A stretch of 64,000 nt of DNA from a virus: the UHGV virus genome UHGV-0179803; one strand, 5' to 3'. Under the pieces are notes generated by a model. That model was given only the letters and a program-made list of their open reading frames with translations, searched no databases and was not told the origin of the DNA. The position numbers were made by a program, and so were the translations under genes. Shown in pieces: positions 16,070-25,684 of the stretch. Every line of letters begins with the position of its first letter. The stretch's first letter is position 1.

Positions 16070-18205
16070 TCACAACATGCAGTGATCACCGCCTACATGT
16101 TTAACCCTCTCTATAACTTCCTGCTGTTTACCAACGTTGAACGGACGAGCGTTTGGTGCACTCAAGTAACCAGATACACGCCGGATTACAGAGAGTGTTG
16201 CAGGATCATGGTTACCACATTCTGGGCATTCGAAACCTTTTGCTGTTGCCTTAGCTTCGCCTTTAAAGCCACATTTCATACAAAAATCAACAGGTTGGTT
16301 TACCCCGTAGTACATAATATGCTTGTAACCAAAATCAATAAGGGCTTCTAAAGCACCGAGGTTATTTCTCAGGTTTGGTGTCTCAATGTAACCAATGTTA
16401 CCTCCGTTGGAGATCGTGGCAAAACCTTCCTCGTATAACCATTTGTCAAAAGGTGTTGTATATAACCACACAGGTTGGTGGAAGCTGTTAGTCAGGTATT
16501 CACGTTCATGTTCCAGCACCCCAGGATACGCTCTGTCTAAGCAAGTAGCTGATTTATAGCATAAACTTTCGCTCGGCGTGCCGTACAAGCTAAAACCTAA
16601 TCTGCTGCGTTCTTTGAACTCAACGCATTTATCCTTCATGTGCTGGAGGATACCCAGAGCAAGGTTTTTGTCGCCTTCCCTACCGAGGATTTGGCATGTT
16701 TCATAAACACCAATGTAGCCGATACTAATCGAAGCATAGCCATCAAAAAACAAACTGTCTATGGTTTCTTCGGGGTCAAGACGGGCAAGAACACCCTCAC
16801 ACCACATGATCGGGTTCTGCCCCGCTTTTGTCCCTTTCAGGCGGTTGACACGAACCATGTGGGCATCGTATGCCAGTTCAAGATATTCATCAAGAACAGC
16901 GTAGAAGTCCGTACCCTCTGTCTTAGCTTTCGCTGCAATCATAGGCAGGTTAAGGCTAACAACACCTAGATTGAAGCGCCCCAGATATTTCTCTTCACCT
17001 GTTTGTTGGTCGATATATTTAGAGAGGTAGCTTCTACATCCCATGCTTGTAACATCACCAGCAGTAGAACCTGTAACTTTTCTGTTCAAAGGCACAGAAA
17101 CAAAGTCTGGGTAAATTCGTTCTGCTGAGCATTCCAAAGCCAGGCGTTTCAGGTCATAATTTGGGTCACCTGGGTTAAGGTTCACACCTTCTTCAAGGAA
17201 GAACAAAACTTTAGGGAATACCGGGGTTATATGATCCTCCCCAATACCACCTTTGTGAACCATAAGATAGTTTTTAGTAATCATCCTCCCAAATTTAGAA
17301 GTATCTAGACCTAAACTGATAGTCAAAAACGGAGTTTGGCCGTTGGTGCTGGTTAATGTGTTGATTTGATAGAGAAAACATTGCATACTATCGTACACAT
17401 CTTTCTCTGTCATTTCATCGGCGACGCTTTCCGGCAAACCGTGTTTTTTACAGAAAGATAAGTTTTTATTATGTGTTTTTTCTACATAAGGTACAAGATA
17501 GCGGTCTATGTGGCTGTACGTCTGCCCACCATATTGCCCACCAGAAACAGCAGCTGAAATTTGTGAAAGAACTGTTGCAGCTACATTAATAGAATTGGGT
17601 GTTCCTATAGTTGCGTTACCTATTGTAAATCCATGCTCCAGCATGTCTGGGTAATTTACAAGACAACAGTTTGTTAATGAACTGATAATATAGTCAAGAT
17701 CGTGCACATGTATAAAACCATCGGTATGTGCCTTCGAAATATGTTCCGGTAGGATCTGTGTCACAGCTAAGTGCTTGCTTAGAATCCCAGCCAGTAAATC
17801 ACGATGAGTGTGCACATGCTTGGTGGGTTTGTTAGCATTCTCCTTGGTGAATTCATCACAGGATTGGTCAAGGAAACCATTAACATCTGCCAGTAGTTTA
17901 CCACCAGCTTCACGATTGTTGTCACGGGTTTTACGGTACTCAATGTAAGCACGGGCAGCATCCAGATAACCATAGCGCATCAAAGCGTTTTCCACCATTG
18001 TGTGGATTTCAGGTACTGTAATCTCCTCTTCATGCTGAGCATAACTTTCCAGCTCAGAAACAATCTCGTCAGCAACAAAGTGTGCTGCATGGAACGCTCT
18101 TACCACATCAGCCCCAGATGCCTCCAGGGCTTTTTGTGCAGCTACCACTATTTTACGAGCATCAAAAGGTTCTGTTGTCAGATCTCTCTTGATTACGTTT
18201 AACAC
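16070..18205 (-). CDS. nrdD: anaerobic ribonucleoside-triphosphate reductase
   Basis: 711 aa; N-terminal ATP-cone; C-terminal Zn ribbon CMKCG...CPECG and glycyl-radical motif RRVSGYL. Confidence 0.95.
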   Translation of the reverse strand: MLNVIKRDLTTEPFDARKIVVAAQKALEASGADVVRAFHAAHFVADEIVSELESYAQHEEEITVPEIHTMVENALMRYGYLDAARAYIEYRKTRDNNREAGGKLLADVNGFLDQSCDEFTKENANKPTKHVHTHRDLLAGILSKHLAVTQILPEHISKAHTDGFIHVHDLDYIISSLTNCCLVNYPDMLEHGFTIGNATIGTPNSINVAATVLSQISAAVSGGQYGGQTYSHIDRYLVPYVEKTHNKNLSFCKKHGLPESVADEMTEKDVYDSMQCFLYQINTLTSTNGQTPFLTISLGLDTSKFGRMITKNYLMVHKGGIGEDHITPVFPKVLFFLEEGVNLNPGDPNYDLKRLALECSAERIYPDFVSVPLNRKVTGSTAGDVTSMGCRSYLSKYIDQQTGEEKYLGRFNLGVVSLNLPMIAAKAKTEGTDFYAVLDEYLELAYDAHMVRVNRLKGTKAGQNPIMWCEGVLARLDPEETIDSLFFDGYASISIGYIGVYETCQILGREGDKNLALGILQHMKDKCVEFKERSRLGFSLYGTPSESLCYKSATCLDRAYPGVLEHEREYLTNSFHQPVWLYTTPFDKWLYEEGFATISNGGNIGYIETPNLRNNLGALEALIDFGYKHIMYYGVNQPVDFCMKCGFKGEAKATAKGFECPECGNHDPATLSVIRRVSGYLSAPNARPFNVGKQQEVIERVKHVGGDHCML

Positions 18206-18951: not shown

Positions 18952-19057
18952 TTCTGTCTCTCCTTGAAGCCGTCCTTTGGGCGAGACGAACTTCTATTTT
19001 ACACTATATCTTGCGGTTGATCAATTACAAATTATCTATCGTTGGGCAAGGTTTTGC

Positions 19058-19264
19058 CTATCGGCACCTCCTTACCCTAAGATGATACTCTTTCTCTTTT
19101 GCTATGTCAATGTCTGCTTTAAACACCAAGTAACGATTGAGCATTTCTTGACACATATCGTGATTGATCCTGTTGGCAAAGACCAACTTTCCGTCCTTAT
19201 CCTGCACTTCCAGCCAGTCACCTTCATGCACTACAGGATCACCACCTTTAGCACACCGACTCAT
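19058..19264 (-). CDS. hypothetical protein
   Basis: 68-aa ORF. Confidence 0.3.
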   Translation of the reverse strand: MSRCAKGGDPVVHEGDWLEVQDKDGKLVFANRINHDMCQEMLNRYLVFKADIDIAKEKEYHLRVRRCR

Positions 19265-19266
19265 GG

Positions 19267-19869
19267 CTACTCCAGAATAGTATCCATGAAGTCTTCGATA
19301 TCATACCAGTCATCTGCCAAGCAGTCAACCGGATTAGTCAGCTCATAGAACTGTTCGTACGGAGTTTTCATTTTAATCAGGATCGTTTTAGCTGGATCAA
19401 ACTGATTAAAGAACTCATTACGGTCGTCTATCATCACATCACAATTGATGTTACCTTTGAAATGTGTAGCATAGAAACCGTGGCCCTGTGAGTGATCATC
19501 AAGGTCCATGAAATCTTGAGTCCAACGCTTCAGGAAGCGAACTTTTGAAGCCTGATGGCCTTTGTGGCACATTGAGATAAACGCAATCTGATGACCCTGT
19601 TTAACCCATTTCTTAAGAACATCCATTGCATGACCATACGGACGAAGACGATCATACAAGTATGGATCCTCCCAGAAATCTTTAGGTTTCAGCATATGCT
19701 TACTCGGTTCAGGGAAGTATTTACCCAGGTCGTAGAACAATCTACCATTCTTAGGATGCTCTTCTGGCAGAGTGAAATCACCATTCACTCTGTACATCGC
19801 TTCCATCCAGTTCCACCATGCACTATCTGTAGGAACAAGTGTGAGATCAACATCAACGCCGATTAACAT
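19267..19869 (-). CDS. HAD-superfamily phosphatase (putative 5'-deoxynucleotidase)
   Basis: N-terminal IGVDVDLTL (DxDxT motif) and VMIDDRNE; 200 aa. Confidence 0.55.
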   Translation of the reverse strand: MLIGVDVDLTLVPTDSAWWNWMEAMYRVNGDFTLPEEHPKNGRLFYDLGKYFPEPSKHMLKPKDFWEDPYLYDRLRPYGHAMDVLKKWVKQGHQIAFISMCHKGHQASKVRFLKRWTQDFMDLDDHSQGHGFYATHFKGNINCDVMIDDRNEFFNQFDPAKTILIKMKTPYEQFYELTNPVDCLADDWYDIEDFMDTILE

Positions 19870-19873
19870 ACTG

Positions 19874-20932
19874 CTACTCCTTTAAACTGTACACCCAGGG
19901 TTTAAGTATCGTTTTTTCTATCTCTTTTACAGCTTCCTTGACACTACCGTTGTTACTTACAGTATAGTGCTCGGCACAGGTATTTGTCAAGGGTTTTCGT
20001 GAATCGTTTTCCCAGGTACAACCTTGTCTTTCGAGATGTATAACAATAACTCTGAACCCCGCGTCTATAAGGACCTGCGCCTCTTCTTCAAAACCTGAAT
20101 CAGAGCACAACACCAGGTTGCACTTATCTAAACGTATAGAGTTAAGGGTAAACCTACCGAACCAATCTTTTCCGTATTTTGGTTTAACATACTCCTCACT
20201 TAAGAACTTGAACCACTCCCTGTTGGTATATAATTTACCACAAAACTCTATGTGTGGGATCCTCTCTTTGAAATCCCTGTTGTCATAAAAAGTTTCAAGC
20301 CTTTTATACATTTCCTTAGACAACAGTTTGCGGCTCCAGTACCATAAACCTGATTTAAAACTGGCCTTGAAATGGTGCAGCCTGAATGCGTTACATATAA
20401 AATCCTTGCCAGAGCCTGGAGGTCCATTTAGCAATACGACGGTTTTTATCTTAAGAGCATCCTCTGCAAAATCTCTAGCAAAAGCGGCTTCCTCAAAAGT
20501 ATCATAGTTCCCTAGAAATATAGACCTGTTGCTGCCGTCACCTATTCTAGCACACCATTTGCTATTATGTTTGCTAAAAGTTACTCCAGTTTTACCGCTT
20601 GTGTTGTTCGAATACTTATTGCACCGTTTAGCAGCGCTGTTGTTAAATGTTTTACTCGTGCATTCAAGATTCCACACATAGTCCCCTACGTGGACTCCGT
20701 GCTTGTGGTTTATTACCATATCTTCTGACAAGGGATAGTAAAACATTTCCCAGATAATCCTATGCCTTTTATATCTTTTACCATTGTACCAAATTCTCCA
20801 GTAACCCTTTTTTCCCTCTGGGCCTCCTGCAAGATCACCTGCGTTATGACTAAACCTCCCTTTTTTTCCTTCAGTTGCCTCTTTCCAGTACAGCTTGCCT
20901 TTATCATATGTGAAAATATTATTCCAATCCAT
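19874..20932 (-). CDS. HNH-AP2 endonuclease domain fused in frame to dNMP kinase
   Basis: N-terminus: KRHRIIWEMFY...INHKHG (HNH) and NTSGKTGVTFSKHNSKWCARI (AP2). C-terminus: LLNGPPGSGKDF P-loop and VIVIHLER, T4 gp1-like. No in-frame start between domains. Confidence 0.7.
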   Translation of the reverse strand: MDWNNIFTYDKGKLYWKEATEGKKGRFSHNAGDLAGGPEGKKGYWRIWYNGKRYKRHRIIWEMFYYPLSEDMVINHKHGVHVGDYVWNLECTSKTFNNSAAKRCNKYSNNTSGKTGVTFSKHNSKWCARIGDGSNRSIFLGNYDTFEEAAFARDFAEDALKIKTVVLLNGPPGSGKDFICNAFRLHHFKASFKSGLWYWSRKLLSKEMYKRLETFYDNRDFKERIPHIEFCGKLYTNREWFKFLSEEYVKPKYGKDWFGRFTLNSIRLDKCNLVLCSDSGFEEEAQVLIDAGFRVIVIHLERQGCTWENDSRKPLTNTCAEHYTVSNNGSVKEAVKEIEKTILKPWVYSLKE

Positions 20933-21123
20933 AATAATCTCCTACTGTTGAACAACACCAAACCACGATGCTGGAAACATACCGAGGTATCTGTTCATAC
21001 CGTGTGGGAGATATACCAGCACATCGCAACCGACCTGCTCAACCAGGTAGACACAACCGATCTGCAAAGTTTTATCAGCATCTTCTTTGAGGCATTTTGC
21101 TTTTAACATTATCCACTCCTGAG

Positions 21124-21141
21124 GGGCCGAAGCCCCTCCAG
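21124..21141 (-). other. GC hairpin (GAGGGGC-CGAA-GCCCCTC)
   Basis: stable tetraloop hairpin between exonuclease gene end and kinase gene start; no T-run, so terminator function uncertain. Confidence 0.3.
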
Positions 21142-21147
21142 CTTCTG

Positions 21148-22131
21148 TTAGATGATCTGAATTAATGTTTCTTTCATTTCTTCGCGTGTACGGATGTTGC
21201 GACGATCACGAGCGATTGAACCACAGTCATCACAGCGATACACCTCGAACTTACTTACCTGGGTGTAAGCATGAACACCATCTTGCTTGGTCAGGTGTAC
21301 ACCACCACAGCGTGGGCAACGCAGAACAGGTTCTTCGTCCTGATAATACAGCGACATGTTCGGATGCTGTTTTGCAAACGGACGTGCAAGCAGGTATAAA
21401 CCTTCCAAAGAGAGGATATCTCCTACATTATATTCACGCATTTTAGCAAATGCATTCAAGTCCCCATGCACACAGGATACCCACATTTGGAACGTGTGGT
21501 CCATAAGTTTTTGATTTTCAAGTTGAAAATACTTACAGGCATACTCCAACGTATTCGCATTTAAGTGGAATGCTTTCTTAATCATCTTCAAAGTATCCAC
21601 TTCTTTATACGGAGATACTGGTGGCATATTGTGAAACGCGAACCGCATGTTGCTCCAGTTATCATCAAAAGGGGCGTTATGGGCTATTGCTATATCGCAA
21701 GTATCCAAGTAATACCACAAATCTTCAATCAAATCATGGTCGTTGTGGATATCCTGTTGCCACATAGGGTAGTCAGGTAGACCACAGTCAACAACGGTTG
21801 GGCTATCGAGCCATTTACCAGCAAACGTCAGCATGTATGGGAAAATTTCAATCCCAGCAGGTTGGATGTTGGTTTTATAATGACCAAAAAACCACCCACA
21901 GGTTGGAGAGGTTTCTGTATCATATATCCAGATTTTAGCACCACGGTTCTCTTCCATGAAACGCTCAGCAGCTTCGCCAGCAATCTCATTGAAGTTAGCC
22001 TGGGCTTTTTTCAGCTGTAGACGAACCCAACTTTCACGGGATTCTTTACCTAATAACTCACGAGCTATCTGCCTATTGGTCCAACCCTGAGTCTTAAGCT
22101 CTACGATTTTTTCTACTGTTAAATCAGCCAT
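21148..22131 (-). CDS. DnaQ-like 3'-5' exonuclease with N-terminal HTH and C-terminal Zn ribbon
   Basis: IWIYDTETS (exo I), IAIAHNAPFD (exo II), HGDLNAFAKMREYNVGD (exo III-like); N-terminal LKTQGWTNRQIAREL; CPRCG...CDDCG. Confidence 0.55.
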   Translation of the reverse strand: MADLTVEKIVELKTQGWTNRQIARELLGKESRESWVRLQLKKAQANFNEIAGEAAERFMEENRGAKIWIYDTETSPTCGWFFGHYKTNIQPAGIEIFPYMLTFAGKWLDSPTVVDCGLPDYPMWQQDIHNDHDLIEDLWYYLDTCDIAIAHNAPFDDNWSNMRFAFHNMPPVSPYKEVDTLKMIKKAFHLNANTLEYACKYFQLENQKLMDHTFQMWVSCVHGDLNAFAKMREYNVGDILSLEGLYLLARPFAKQHPNMSLYYQDEEPVLRCPRCGGVHLTKQDGVHAYTQVSKFEVYRCDDCGSIARDRRNIRTREEMKETLIQII

Positions 22132-22141
22132 TTCATTATCC

Positions 22142-22372
22142 TTAGTAGAATCGTACGATATCCTGAACTTTGAAGTCTCGATACTCGCCTTTCTCTATGT
22201 CAAAAGCGTGCATCAGATAACAATCTTCAGGATGCCATTCTGTATGTCCGAACCAGATCTGTGGCTCTGTGACTATCCGATCAGAGTATTTACCTTTGTA
22301 GTTACGATAAAGAAATCTTAGTACAACTGCTTCACATGGTTTAAACACGGGTTTCTCTCTGATCTCCGACAT
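22142..22372 (-). CDS. hypothetical protein
   Basis: 76-aa ORF. Confidence 0.35.
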   Translation of the reverse strand: MSEIREKPVFKPCEAVVLRFLYRNYKGKYSDRIVTEPQIWFGHTEWHPEDCYLMHAFDIEKGEYRDFKVQDIVRFY

Positions 22373-24482: not shown

Positions 24483-24962
24483 TTAATCTGTAACCACACC
24501 TCCAGCATTACGGAAAACCCTCAGCATTTTTTCAATATCCTCAACCCGCTGATCATAAAGTTTACCAGAACCTGGAGGTGGTGGGAAACTCGCCCAGCGG
24601 CTACGGCATTTATAGATAGCTGAACGGATCCTCCCTTCATAAATGTCATCAAGGGCTTTACATTCACGGATCAGTTGTTTTGCTATAGCATCCTGACTTG
24701 CTGGGCCGAAATCTCTTAAGCCGAGCTGTTTCATATAATGTTTGGCATATTTCTCCAAGATCTGATATCTGCCGAATGCTGATGACGTTAAGCCCGGACG
24801 TAGTTTGACATAAATACCTGGGTGTTTACTAAGATCTTCTATATACCTCCCGCCACACAAGATGTGATACGAAGCAGCTTCGCTACCGTAACGGTCAGTT
24901 CCTTCACTGAACGAAATCAACGAAAAAAATGCTCTCAATTGCTTATCCTTATTTAATTTCAT
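24483..24962 (-). CDS. endolysin (lambda R-like lytic transglycosylase)
   Basis: FFSLISFSEGTD, GRYQIL, QLGLRDFGPASQDAIAKQLI, WASFP closely mirror lambda R; RBS GGAGG. Confidence 0.9.
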   Translation of the reverse strand: MKLNKDKQLRAFFSLISFSEGTDRYGSEAASYHILCGGRYIEDLSKHPGIYVKLRPGLTSSAFGRYQILEKYAKHYMKQLGLRDFGPASQDAIAKQLIRECKALDDIYEGRIRSAIYKCRSRWASFPPPPGSGKLYDQRVEDIEKMLRVFRNAGGVVTD

Positions 24963-25684
24963 TTGAACCTCCGATTAAACCACTCTTCCAACAAACCGTT
25001 ATGCTTTGCATACTCTGCGGATTTTCTGACACATACAGCATCCCACCACTCTGCATATTGCCCTAGGTGATACCTTTTACTATTTTCAGAAATCTGAACT
25101 TGCCACTTTTCAGCATCATGTCTCCATTTAACACCTGTGCACCCCGACGTGTTATTAAGTTTAAGTGTTCTGCCTTTGTAAGTACCTAAAATTAGCTGTT
25201 TTCTTGCCTCTACAGCCTCGTCTTTGGTTCTAAAGTACCCAGCAAAAAGCGCCCCGCCTGTGATAGTGTTATATTCTGCATACCATAAACCGTTCTCACG
25301 TTTCTTATGAACGCCTGCGTGACCGTGTAAATTATTTTTCTGTAGTAAATTATTTCTTATACGATCCTTGTTATTCTCACTATATGTTCCCATAGCAAGA
25401 TTTTCTATATTATCCTGACCTTTTATGTCATTTAAATGCCTGACAAGAAAGTTTTTTGTTAGGGAGTTATAAAACATATCATAAACTATTCTATGACGTT
25501 TCCTCTCACGAACCTCCGAGGATTTAATACCGATGTACCCTTGCCTATCTTTACAACCCGCTTTTGTGCCAGCCTTTATAAAGAGTTGACTTTTGCCTCT
25601 ACCTCTGTAATGATTCTTTGTCCAAATTAGCTCCCCATCTTTGTACCAGAATGGGAAATTATCATTAAAGAAGAAATTAATCAT
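24959..25684 (-). CDS. HNH homing endonuclease with two AP2 domains
   Basis: RKRHRIVYDMFY...VRHLND...DNIENL (HNH); two AP2-like repeats (GVHKKRENGLWYAEY; NTSGCTGVKWRHDAEKWQV); own RBS; ATGA overlap with endolysin start. Confidence 0.85.
   Translation of the reverse strand: MINFFFNDNFPFWYKDGELIWTKNHYRGRGKSQLFIKAGTKAGCKDRQGYIGIKSSEVRERKRHRIVYDMFYNSLTKNFLVRHLNDIKGQDNIENLAMGTYSENNKDRIRNNLLQKNNLHGHAGVHKKRENGLWYAEYNTITGGALFAGYFRTKDEAVEARKQLILGTYKGRTLKLNNTSGCTGVKWRHDAEKWQVQISENSKRYHLGQYAEWWDAVCVRKSAEYAKHNGLLEEWFNRRFK

Follow-up and report, generated by a model that had tools for sequence, protein, structure and literature searches.

Homing endonuclease genes are, to our knowledge, thought to persist solely by repeated invasion of empty sites, and to decay otherwise unless they lie inside a self-splicing intron or intein. 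In Aeh1 nrdA/mobE and in T4 gene 39/60 mobA, insertion of an endonuclease gene splits a nucleotide-metabolism or replication gene whose function is kept. Deoxynucleoside monophosphate (dNMP) kinases are represented in T4 by gp1, which accepts hydroxymethyl-dCMP, dGMP and dTMP as substrates. In ICP1 phages, endonucleases that combine an HNH nuclease with an AP2 domain were described as the products of homing endonuclease genes located at genetic-exchange boundaries (PMC10055350), and in T4 the SegF (gene 56/69), SegB and MobE enzymes are presented as agents of intronless homing and localized marker exclusion (PMC8351571; PMC2330249; PMC2790892; PMC2988022). The locus considered here lies in the virus genome UHGV-0179803, of which one stretch of 64,000 nucleotides (nt), called the window below, was analysed; it is an open reading frame (ORF) of 352 amino acids (aa) that joins an HNH-AP2 endonuclease to a T4 gp1-like dNMP kinase. 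Our preferred explanation, with a probability of roughly 0.6, is that a gut phage related to the vequintaviruses had its ancestral kinase overwritten by a selfish HNH-AP2 homing endonuclease carried in one polypeptide with a xenologous dNMP kinase.

The fusion ORF runs on the minus strand, a detail absent from the initial annotation, through 352 codons from an ATG start to a TAG stop and is preceded by a GGAG Shine-Dalgarno motif, within TAGGAGATTATT, 7 nt 5' of the ATG. PHROGs profiles assign residues 1–160 to phrog_99 (HNH endonuclease, E 9.5e-41) and residues 156–342 to phrog_139 (dNMP kinase, E 8.5e-30), and structure models divide the protein in the same way, which confirms the single in-frame HNH-AP2::kinase ORF proposed by the initial annotation. 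An NCBIfam scan of the fusion protein returned zero matches. The exact window protein is deposited at NCBI as DAM57105.1 under the title "MAG TPA: homing endonuclease [Caudoviricetes sp.]", a label that conceals the sole dNMP kinase found in the 64-kb window.

The HNH-AP2 half has more than 70 homologues at 33–45% identity. Across 21 homologues, two positions (H76, N88) never vary and three more (H57, R58, N97) hardly do; all are retained in the window protein, and these HNH catalytic or structural residues are kept in all five known variants of the fusion. The AP2 domain, whose final helix is FEEAAFARDFAEDAL, matches the AP2 domain of plant WRI1 over residues 91–157 in a phmmer search (E 6e-7). 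The AlphaFold2 model of the N-terminal half has a predicted local distance difference test score (pLDDT) of 85–97, and its two best Protein Data Bank (PDB) matches are I-HmuI (1u3e, probability 1.00, 97 columns, root-mean-square deviation 3.9 Å, E 1.6e-3) and, for the AP2 domain, AtERF1 (1gcc, Foldseek probability 0.99). By profile, conserved residues and predicted fold, this half is assigned to the I-HmuI-like homing endonuclease family, and a nuclease activity is predicted for it. Aligning the fusion jointly, in MAFFT, with the homologues of each half misplaced kinases onto the HNH half, and that alignment was discarded; in a full-length AlphaFold2 model the kinase half was poor owing to misalignment, so that this model is uninformative on the orientation of the domains.

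The kinase half was modelled with a pLDDT of 94.7, and its best Foldseek match is the T4 dNMP kinase (1dek_A, E 6.9e-8, query TM-score (TMq) 0.63), which ranks above adenylate, cytidylate and phosphomevalonate kinases; a profile of the kinase family also finds 1dek, at E 8e-7. All 14–15 family-invariant residues are retained (N9, G15, K16, D17, R78, S85, E86, K90, D118, G120, F121, E124, D150 and R152 in the numbering of the half), the sole deviation being a proline at the near-invariant Y154. The fusion probably has dNMP kinase activity, as suggested by the family annotation and by its place in a nucleotide-metabolism gene cluster with an NT5C-like gene and nrdD. The representative-protein search also gave P0030 (403 aa) and P0080 (461 aa), in which a PNKP-type HAD phosphatase domain precedes a kinase of this family, an order that mirrors the separate pnk-then-kinase genes of T1-like phages; this shows that N-terminal fusions to this kinase family are tolerated.

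Ten comparable loci were gathered from IMG/VR, ENA and Logan by means of the conserved downstream gene. Their gene order is endonuclease VII, orf76, a DnaQ-like exonuclease, orf55, a kinase slot and the NT5C-like gene. The slot holds the fusion in two of the ten (the window and L004), and in the other eight a stand-alone kinase of 209 aa, here kinase B, which shares no more than 28% identity with the kinase of the fusion. Two of the kinase-B loci, L010 and L013, show the exact gene context of the window, with orf76 99%, the exonuclease 97%, orf55 96% and the NT5C-like gene 97.5% identical, and yet encode kinase B. Kinase B is 66% identical to a P-loop nucleoside triphosphatase at the same syntenic slot of cultured Vequintavirus phages, and it is the vertically inherited gene of the lineage. 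The initial annotation had proposed a comparison with endonuclease-free alleles in related phages; such alleles are present in these eight close relatives, but they encode a different kinase. Aligned with the kinase-B allele, the fusion (also called the cassette) shares DNA homology through orf55, its stop, the Shine-Dalgarno motif and ATG-GAT, after which homology is lost (kinase B starts MDVIVLN, the fusion MDWNNIF) and is regained at the last two to three codons, GAGGAGTAG or AAGGAGTAG. The GC content of the cassette is 0.40, compared with 0.43–0.46 for its neighbours and 0.46 for kinase B. Since the slot allele that lacks the endonuclease is this different, Vequintavirus-orthologous kinase, the whole coding sequence was replaced, and the locus is no insertion upstream of a resident kinase. 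A foreign HNH::kinase unit has precisely taken the place of the ancestral kinase coding sequence. An insertion that captured the kinase start, as first suggested, is thus not supported, although the ribosome-binding site and ATG of the kinase slot are indeed used, by a foreign fusion that took the place of a resident kinase of only 28% identity.

A scan of IMG/VR did not find the fusion, but only a free-standing HNH gene on an unrelated 49-kb contig (L005), and megablast of window positions 19000–22000 against 50,697 phage records gave no match. The window genome is a metagenome-assembled myovirus of ~139 kb, and a contig related to it bears the label "human gut metagenome"; the tail sheath of the window is 70% identical to that of Escherichia Vequintavirus (rV5-like) phages.

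The flanks of the cassette do not follow its distribution. The upstream flank of L004 is 98% identical to that of the kinase-B genomes L010 and L013 and 91–93% identical to that of the fusion-bearing window; flank identities thus cross cassette status, and the presence of the cassette does not track flank ancestry. At least one exchange has occurred at the cassette borders, and it may have gone in either direction. The presence/absence polymorphism, the sharp breakpoints and this flank incongruence are indirect evidence for putative site-specific nicking or cleavage and for putative homing.

The position of the join was located by an exhaustive search of 1.84 billion representative proteins, used instead of a word-indexed protein search that gave just three matches. 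Only the fusion's own cluster spans both domains, all other matches covering either residues 1–160 or 162–345. Stand-alone kinases of 180–200 aa begin at positions aligned to residues 162–165 of the query (e.g., P0006, MKTVIILNGPPGVGKD), which places the ancestral Met1 at I162, codon ATA (20447–20449). The initial annotation stated that no ATG, GTG or TTG occurs in frame between the domains. In fact an in-frame TTG is present at codon 167 (20432–20434, the second L of VVLLNGPPG); it lacks a Shine-Dalgarno motif, a start there would delete strand beta-1, and the codon is TTA in L004. The junction DNA of L004 is identical up to codon 164. TTG167 is therefore not a conserved start; with no conserved internal start, translation of the kinase only as a fusion is the most likely case. 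On the other hand, the kinase might also, or mainly, be translated alone from the non-canonical ATA162 (GTG being possible in some variants), which would make the fusion largely an annotation-level feature. The ATA lies exactly at the ancestral Met1, a 5-base Shine-Dalgarno-like GAGGA motif lies 10 nt 5' of it, and variant P0155 has, at the protein level, a valine at residue 162, all of which would permit some independent kinase translation. This is nonetheless rather unlikely: no stop codon intervenes, so that ribosomes that have read the endonuclease go on through the kinase part and will produce the fusion in any case, TTG167 is not conserved, and a promoter/terminator scan found no internal promoter for the kinase half and no promoter-like site on the coding strand inside the HNH half. 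Additionally, ATA reportedly initiates at ~0.1–1% of the ATG level in E. coli-type systems, according to a survey of initiation at all 64 codons.

As to the unfused precursor, phages T1 and TH21 have a homologous HNH-AP2 ORF that ends 2–4 nt ahead of the kinase ATG; the distance is 2 nt in T1, and in TH21 the HNH-AP2 and kinase ORFs are in the same frame with one stop codon and one further codon between them. By analogy, this adjacent-gene layout is a plausible precursor, one small deletion away from the fusion. The idea that a frameshift might uncover an ancestral endonuclease stop at the junction was considered and rejected: a TAA in the +1 frame does overlap ATA162, but the translation of that frame is unlike the conserved endonuclease tail.

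The fusion is not peculiar to one assembly. The exact window protein occurs on four contigs of 50–200 kb, one at 63x coverage, and its 90% cluster comprises five variants of 349–359 aa, 91–95% identical, from at least seven metagenomic contigs; all five are fused, with the junction AEDALK(I/V)KT(V/A)VLLNG. A sequencing or assembly artefact, i.e., a missed stop or frameshift between two genes, has a negligible probability, given the identical ORF on four long contigs and four further variants from other samples that keep one frame with no indels. An identical protein on four contigs, one of them at 63x, rules out read or assembly error, and the stop or frameshift between the domains that the initial annotation had named as a possible refutation was looked for across contigs and variants and not found.

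Selection was estimated codon by codon with the Nei-Gojobori method (NG86) from a single DNA pair, the window and L004 (Logan SRR13621811), which are 94% identical and differ by zero indels over the fusion. In the HNH-AP2 half (residues 1–161), 29 synonymous differences (92 sites) and 7 non-synonymous differences (391 sites) give dS 0.41, dN 0.018 and omega 0.044; the kinase half shows 25 synonymous and 9 non-synonymous differences, with dN/dS of 0.024 for the core (residues 162–316) and 0.075 for residues 162–340, compared with 0.027 for the neighbouring exonuclease gene and 0.023 for the NT5C-like gene. On these estimates both halves are under strong purifying selection, and free evolution is confined to the last ~35 residues of the fusion. 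In this C-terminal tail (residues 317–352; window 19874..19982, minus strand) 11 non-synonymous changes were counted against 1 synonymous change, and the stop position shifts among variants to give 349, 352 or 359 aa; in L004 (10949–11080) the TAG is absent and the ORF overlaps the start of the NT5C-like gene by 17 nt. The 3' end of the kinase domain also contains a near-consensus sigma-70-like promoter facing the NT5C-like gene (19961..19990, minus strand; TTGACA, 18 nt, TATACT; 11/12 matches), although in the promoter/terminator scan promoter-like sites in the region were no commoner than in shuffled sequence. The two fusion alleles have a dS of 0.33–0.41, similar to that of neighbouring genes, and hence the event is not very recent, contrary to the recent insertion first envisaged.

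The fusion ties the kinase to the endonuclease reading frame, and there should therefore be selection against truncation of the endonuclease. An alternative reading sees in the endonuclease half the relic of an inactive homing endonuclease gene, a mere leader kept because truncation would end kinase translation. Frameshift and nonsense mutations are indeed selected against by the fusion, the Pfam scores fall below the gathering thresholds (HNH_3 18.6 bits, cut-off 24.8; AP2 14.9 bits, cut-off 33.3), and a C-terminal tail of ~10 residues, [FY]HxNHG, conserved in free-standing homologues, is absent. A dead leader is however very improbable, since missense changes are strongly purged too (the 7 against 29 differences above), every invariant HNH and AP2 column is kept and the half is confidently modelled. 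The equally strong purging of missense changes suggests that the nuclease/DNA-binding module itself is still used, which may be for homing, for a domesticated role, or for both.

The preferred explanation, overwriting by a selfish endonuclease joined to a foreign kinase, can be set out in steps. A free-standing HNH-AP2 gene would have lost its C-terminal tail and stop codon, and the adjoining downstream dNMP kinase gene its start (ATG to ATA, codon 162), to yield one protein of 352 aa. The cassette displaced the ancestral kinase, coding sequence for coding sequence, and uses the resident ribosome-binding site and ATG. During co-infection, the HNH-AP2 enzyme would nick or cut an allele that lacks the cassette, at a site within kinase B or close to it. 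Since the DNA of the two kinases is not homologous, repair templated by the cassette genome would have to begin in the flanks that are, orf55 and the NT5C-like gene, and would bring in both the endonuclease and the cleavage-immune kinase that serves as its replacement. With kinase supply tied to the endonuclease frame, any frameshift or nonsense mutation that disabled the selfish gene would cost the phage its kinase as well. A bolder generalization, which we hold only tentatively and rate below an even chance, is that of a one-gene "cut-and-replace" mobile element, in which an endonuclease bears a covalently attached, cleavage-immune xenologue of its target, overwrites the resident kinase and is expressed from the signals of that gene. 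Provided that the nuclease is active, the locus would be a compact natural gene-drive-like cassette with its own rescue copy, and would explain how a selfish gene becomes locked into a phage genome. Both alleles, fusion and kinase B, circulate in near-isogenic phages related to cultivable E. coli Vequintaviruses, which makes the system directly testable.

Several observations weigh against this explanation. Besides the low Pfam scores, the missing tail, the reliance of dN/dS on one DNA pair and the signals around ATA162 already described, the two cassette alleles differ at ~6–7% of bases, like the background, and the flank incongruence could mean that kinase B re-replaced the cassette rather than that the cassette spread; moreover, a close unfused relative of the cassette was not found in the searches, and the fusion step is a reconstruction. 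The initial annotation had also raised a domesticated fusion, a bifunctional protein in which the HNH-AP2 module is no longer selfish but is kept for the benefit of the kinase or the phage. The AP2 domain might, for example, tether the dNMP kinase to DNA or to the replication complex, or nicking or degradation might be coupled to dNMP salvage. In line with such a role, the omega of the endonuclease half is as low as that of housekeeping neighbours and lower than in the endonuclease part of a second fusion, in orf76 (dN/dS 0.13–0.26 over four alleles, L011 being identical to L007), the tail of the free-standing form is lost, and P0030 and P0080 exemplify other N-terminal fusions to nucleic-acid enzymes. 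Yet the cassette is a minority allele in a population where stand-alone kinase B is fully sufficient, the HNH catalytic residues are kept as in mobile relatives, and homing endonuclease genes typically leave just such sharp replacement borders and flank incongruence; additionally, HNH-AP2 enzymes (I-HmuI, T4 Mob enzymes) are site-specific nickases that do not release dNMPs. Domestication is for these reasons considered unlikely, though less so than the other alternatives, and overwriting by a selfish fusion is retained as the preferred explanation.

Table 1. Positions of the fusion, its subdomains, its borders and neighbouring features (window coordinates unless a locus is named).
Feature	Position	Strand	Basis or remark
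Whole fusion ORF, 352 aa (HNH-AP2 endonuclease + dNMP kinase)	19874..20932	-	ORF call, profiles, five variants
HNH (beta-beta-alpha-Me) nuclease core, residues 54–98	20639..20773	-	homologue alignments, Foldseek to I-HmuI 1u3e
AP2 DNA-binding domain, residues 111–160, final helix FEEAAFARDFAEDAL	20453..20602	-	phmmer, alignment, Foldseek
Fusion junction, codons 159–168 (A L K I K T V V L L)	20429..20458	-	codon comparison
dNMP kinase domain, residues 162–352	19877..20449	-	PHROGs, alignments, structure model
P-loop NGPPGSGKD	20402–20428	-	kinase domain N-terminus
5' breakpoint of the cassette, ATG GAT	20927..20932	-	end of upstream homology, alignment with kinase-B allele
Ribosome-binding region TAGGAGATTATT, including orf55 TAG stop	20933..20944	-	~96–98% identity to kinase-B relatives
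3' breakpoint of the cassette, AAG GAG TAG, also Shine-Dalgarno of NT5C-like gene	19874..19882	-	homology resumes
orf55, upstream flank	20942..21109	-	96% identical in kinase-B relatives
NT5C-like (HAD) gene, 200 aa, downstream flank	19267..19869	-	protein 97.5–99% identical in all relatives
orf76, intact in window	22142..22372	-	76-aa ORF
orf76 fusions	L006 8001–9011; L007 3147–4157; L008 3147–4157; L009 3273–4283; L011 3147–4157		

The neighbourhood of the cassette is rich in variable endonuclease genes. The second HNH-AP2 fusion lies three genes from the kinase slot, where the first six codons of orf76 (MSEIRE...) in L006–L009 and L011 are followed in frame by an HNH-AP2x2 module; the 336-aa product (P0008) is intact in all five loci. 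On the 3' side of this insertion ~40 codons, the N-terminal half of orf76, are strongly diverged, and identity is back at HPEDCYLMHAF. The orf76 fusions of these sister genomes may reflect a recurrent persistence strategy of the HNH-AP2 family in rV5-like gut phages. The anaerobic ribonucleotide reductase gene nrdD is uninterrupted in the window, with 711 aa in one ORF (16070..18205, minus strand), whereas in L004 (12727–16140) an HNH_3 gene lies among three nrdD ORFs and in L006 (12392–15731) a NUMOD4 endonuclease gene among two; these interruptions may be introns or free-standing insertions. The window also has a free-standing 241-aa HNH gene with two AP2 domains (24959..25684, minus strand), ~30% identical to the fused endonuclease; it is missing from L004, where the flanking genes abut, and in L006 another, distinct HNH-AP2 gene is found at a distance of one more gene. 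The DnaQ-like exonuclease gene (DNA polymerase exonuclease subunit, phrog_403; 21148..22131, minus strand) exists as alleles A and B, 57% identical, which are freely combined with the presence or absence of orf55, the orf76 allele and the kinase allele in a 3-kb mosaic hotspot. Between this gene and orf55 lies a GC-rich hairpin, GGAGGGGC-TTCG-GCCCCTC (~21121..21139, minus strand), which is kept in relatives with a change only of the loop in L007; no T-run follows it, and it is therefore not a canonical terminator.

Compared with described systems, the locus resembles the free-standing phage HNH-AP2 genes (T1 CPTT1_015, T7 gp3.8-like, ICP1 Gp59/Gp209; PHROG 99), whose products have the same N-terminal beta-hairpin followed by HNH core and AP2, at 30–45% identity. 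The free-standing gene of T1 and TH21 lies directly 5' of the dNMP kinase gene, and as in ICP1 the presence of the endonuclease is variable among close relatives and its place is at the edge of a divergent patch (PMC10055350). Unlike these genes, the fusion has no stop codon between the two parts, no separate kinase start and no [FY]HxNHG tail. T4 gp1 (PDB 1DEK/1DEL) and the fused kinase both have a GKD P-loop at the extreme N-terminus of the kinase domain; they differ in sequence (~13% identity) and in length (241 aa against ~190 aa for the fused domain), and only the fused kinase is preceded by a 161-aa endonuclease. The likeness to T4 SegF, SegB and MobE, for which reports are cited at the outset, is that the endonuclease is inherited with its flanks and that the adjoining allele diverges from that of endonuclease-free genomes. 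The T4 endonucleases are however encoded by separate intergenic ORFs, whereas here the endonuclease is fused to a xenologue of the displaced gene and its homing is putative.

With inteins and in-frame intron ORFs the locus shares an endonuclease placed in frame in a host gene and translated from host initiation signals. Hint or intein splicing blocks were not found in the fusion by Pfam, NCBIfam and PHROG scans, and an intein was rejected both for this reason and because the endonuclease lies at the extreme N-terminus, with no N-extein past Met-Asp. No intron ribozyme was detected either, Pfam and PHROG showing only HNH, AP2 and kinase modules (Rfam was not run here). Having neither splicing domain nor ribozyme, the endonuclease should therefore remain attached to the kinase. 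As in Aeh1 nrdA/mobE and T4 39/60 mobA, an endonuclease is found in a nucleotide-metabolism or replication gene, to which the interrupted nrdD of L004 and L006 may be compared; there, one gene gives two polypeptides, whereas here two genes give one. Among open-access papers, the literature contained no earlier endonuclease::dNMP-kinase fusion, and no case in which an endonuclease of the free-standing type shares a reading frame with its host gene. If our explanation is true, the fusion represents an intein-less and intron-less way to embed a homing endonuclease in an essential reading frame, and hence a third arrangement, in which a free-standing-type HNH endonuclease is welded to the predicted replacement of the gene that it displaced, with both halves apparently held under purifying selection.

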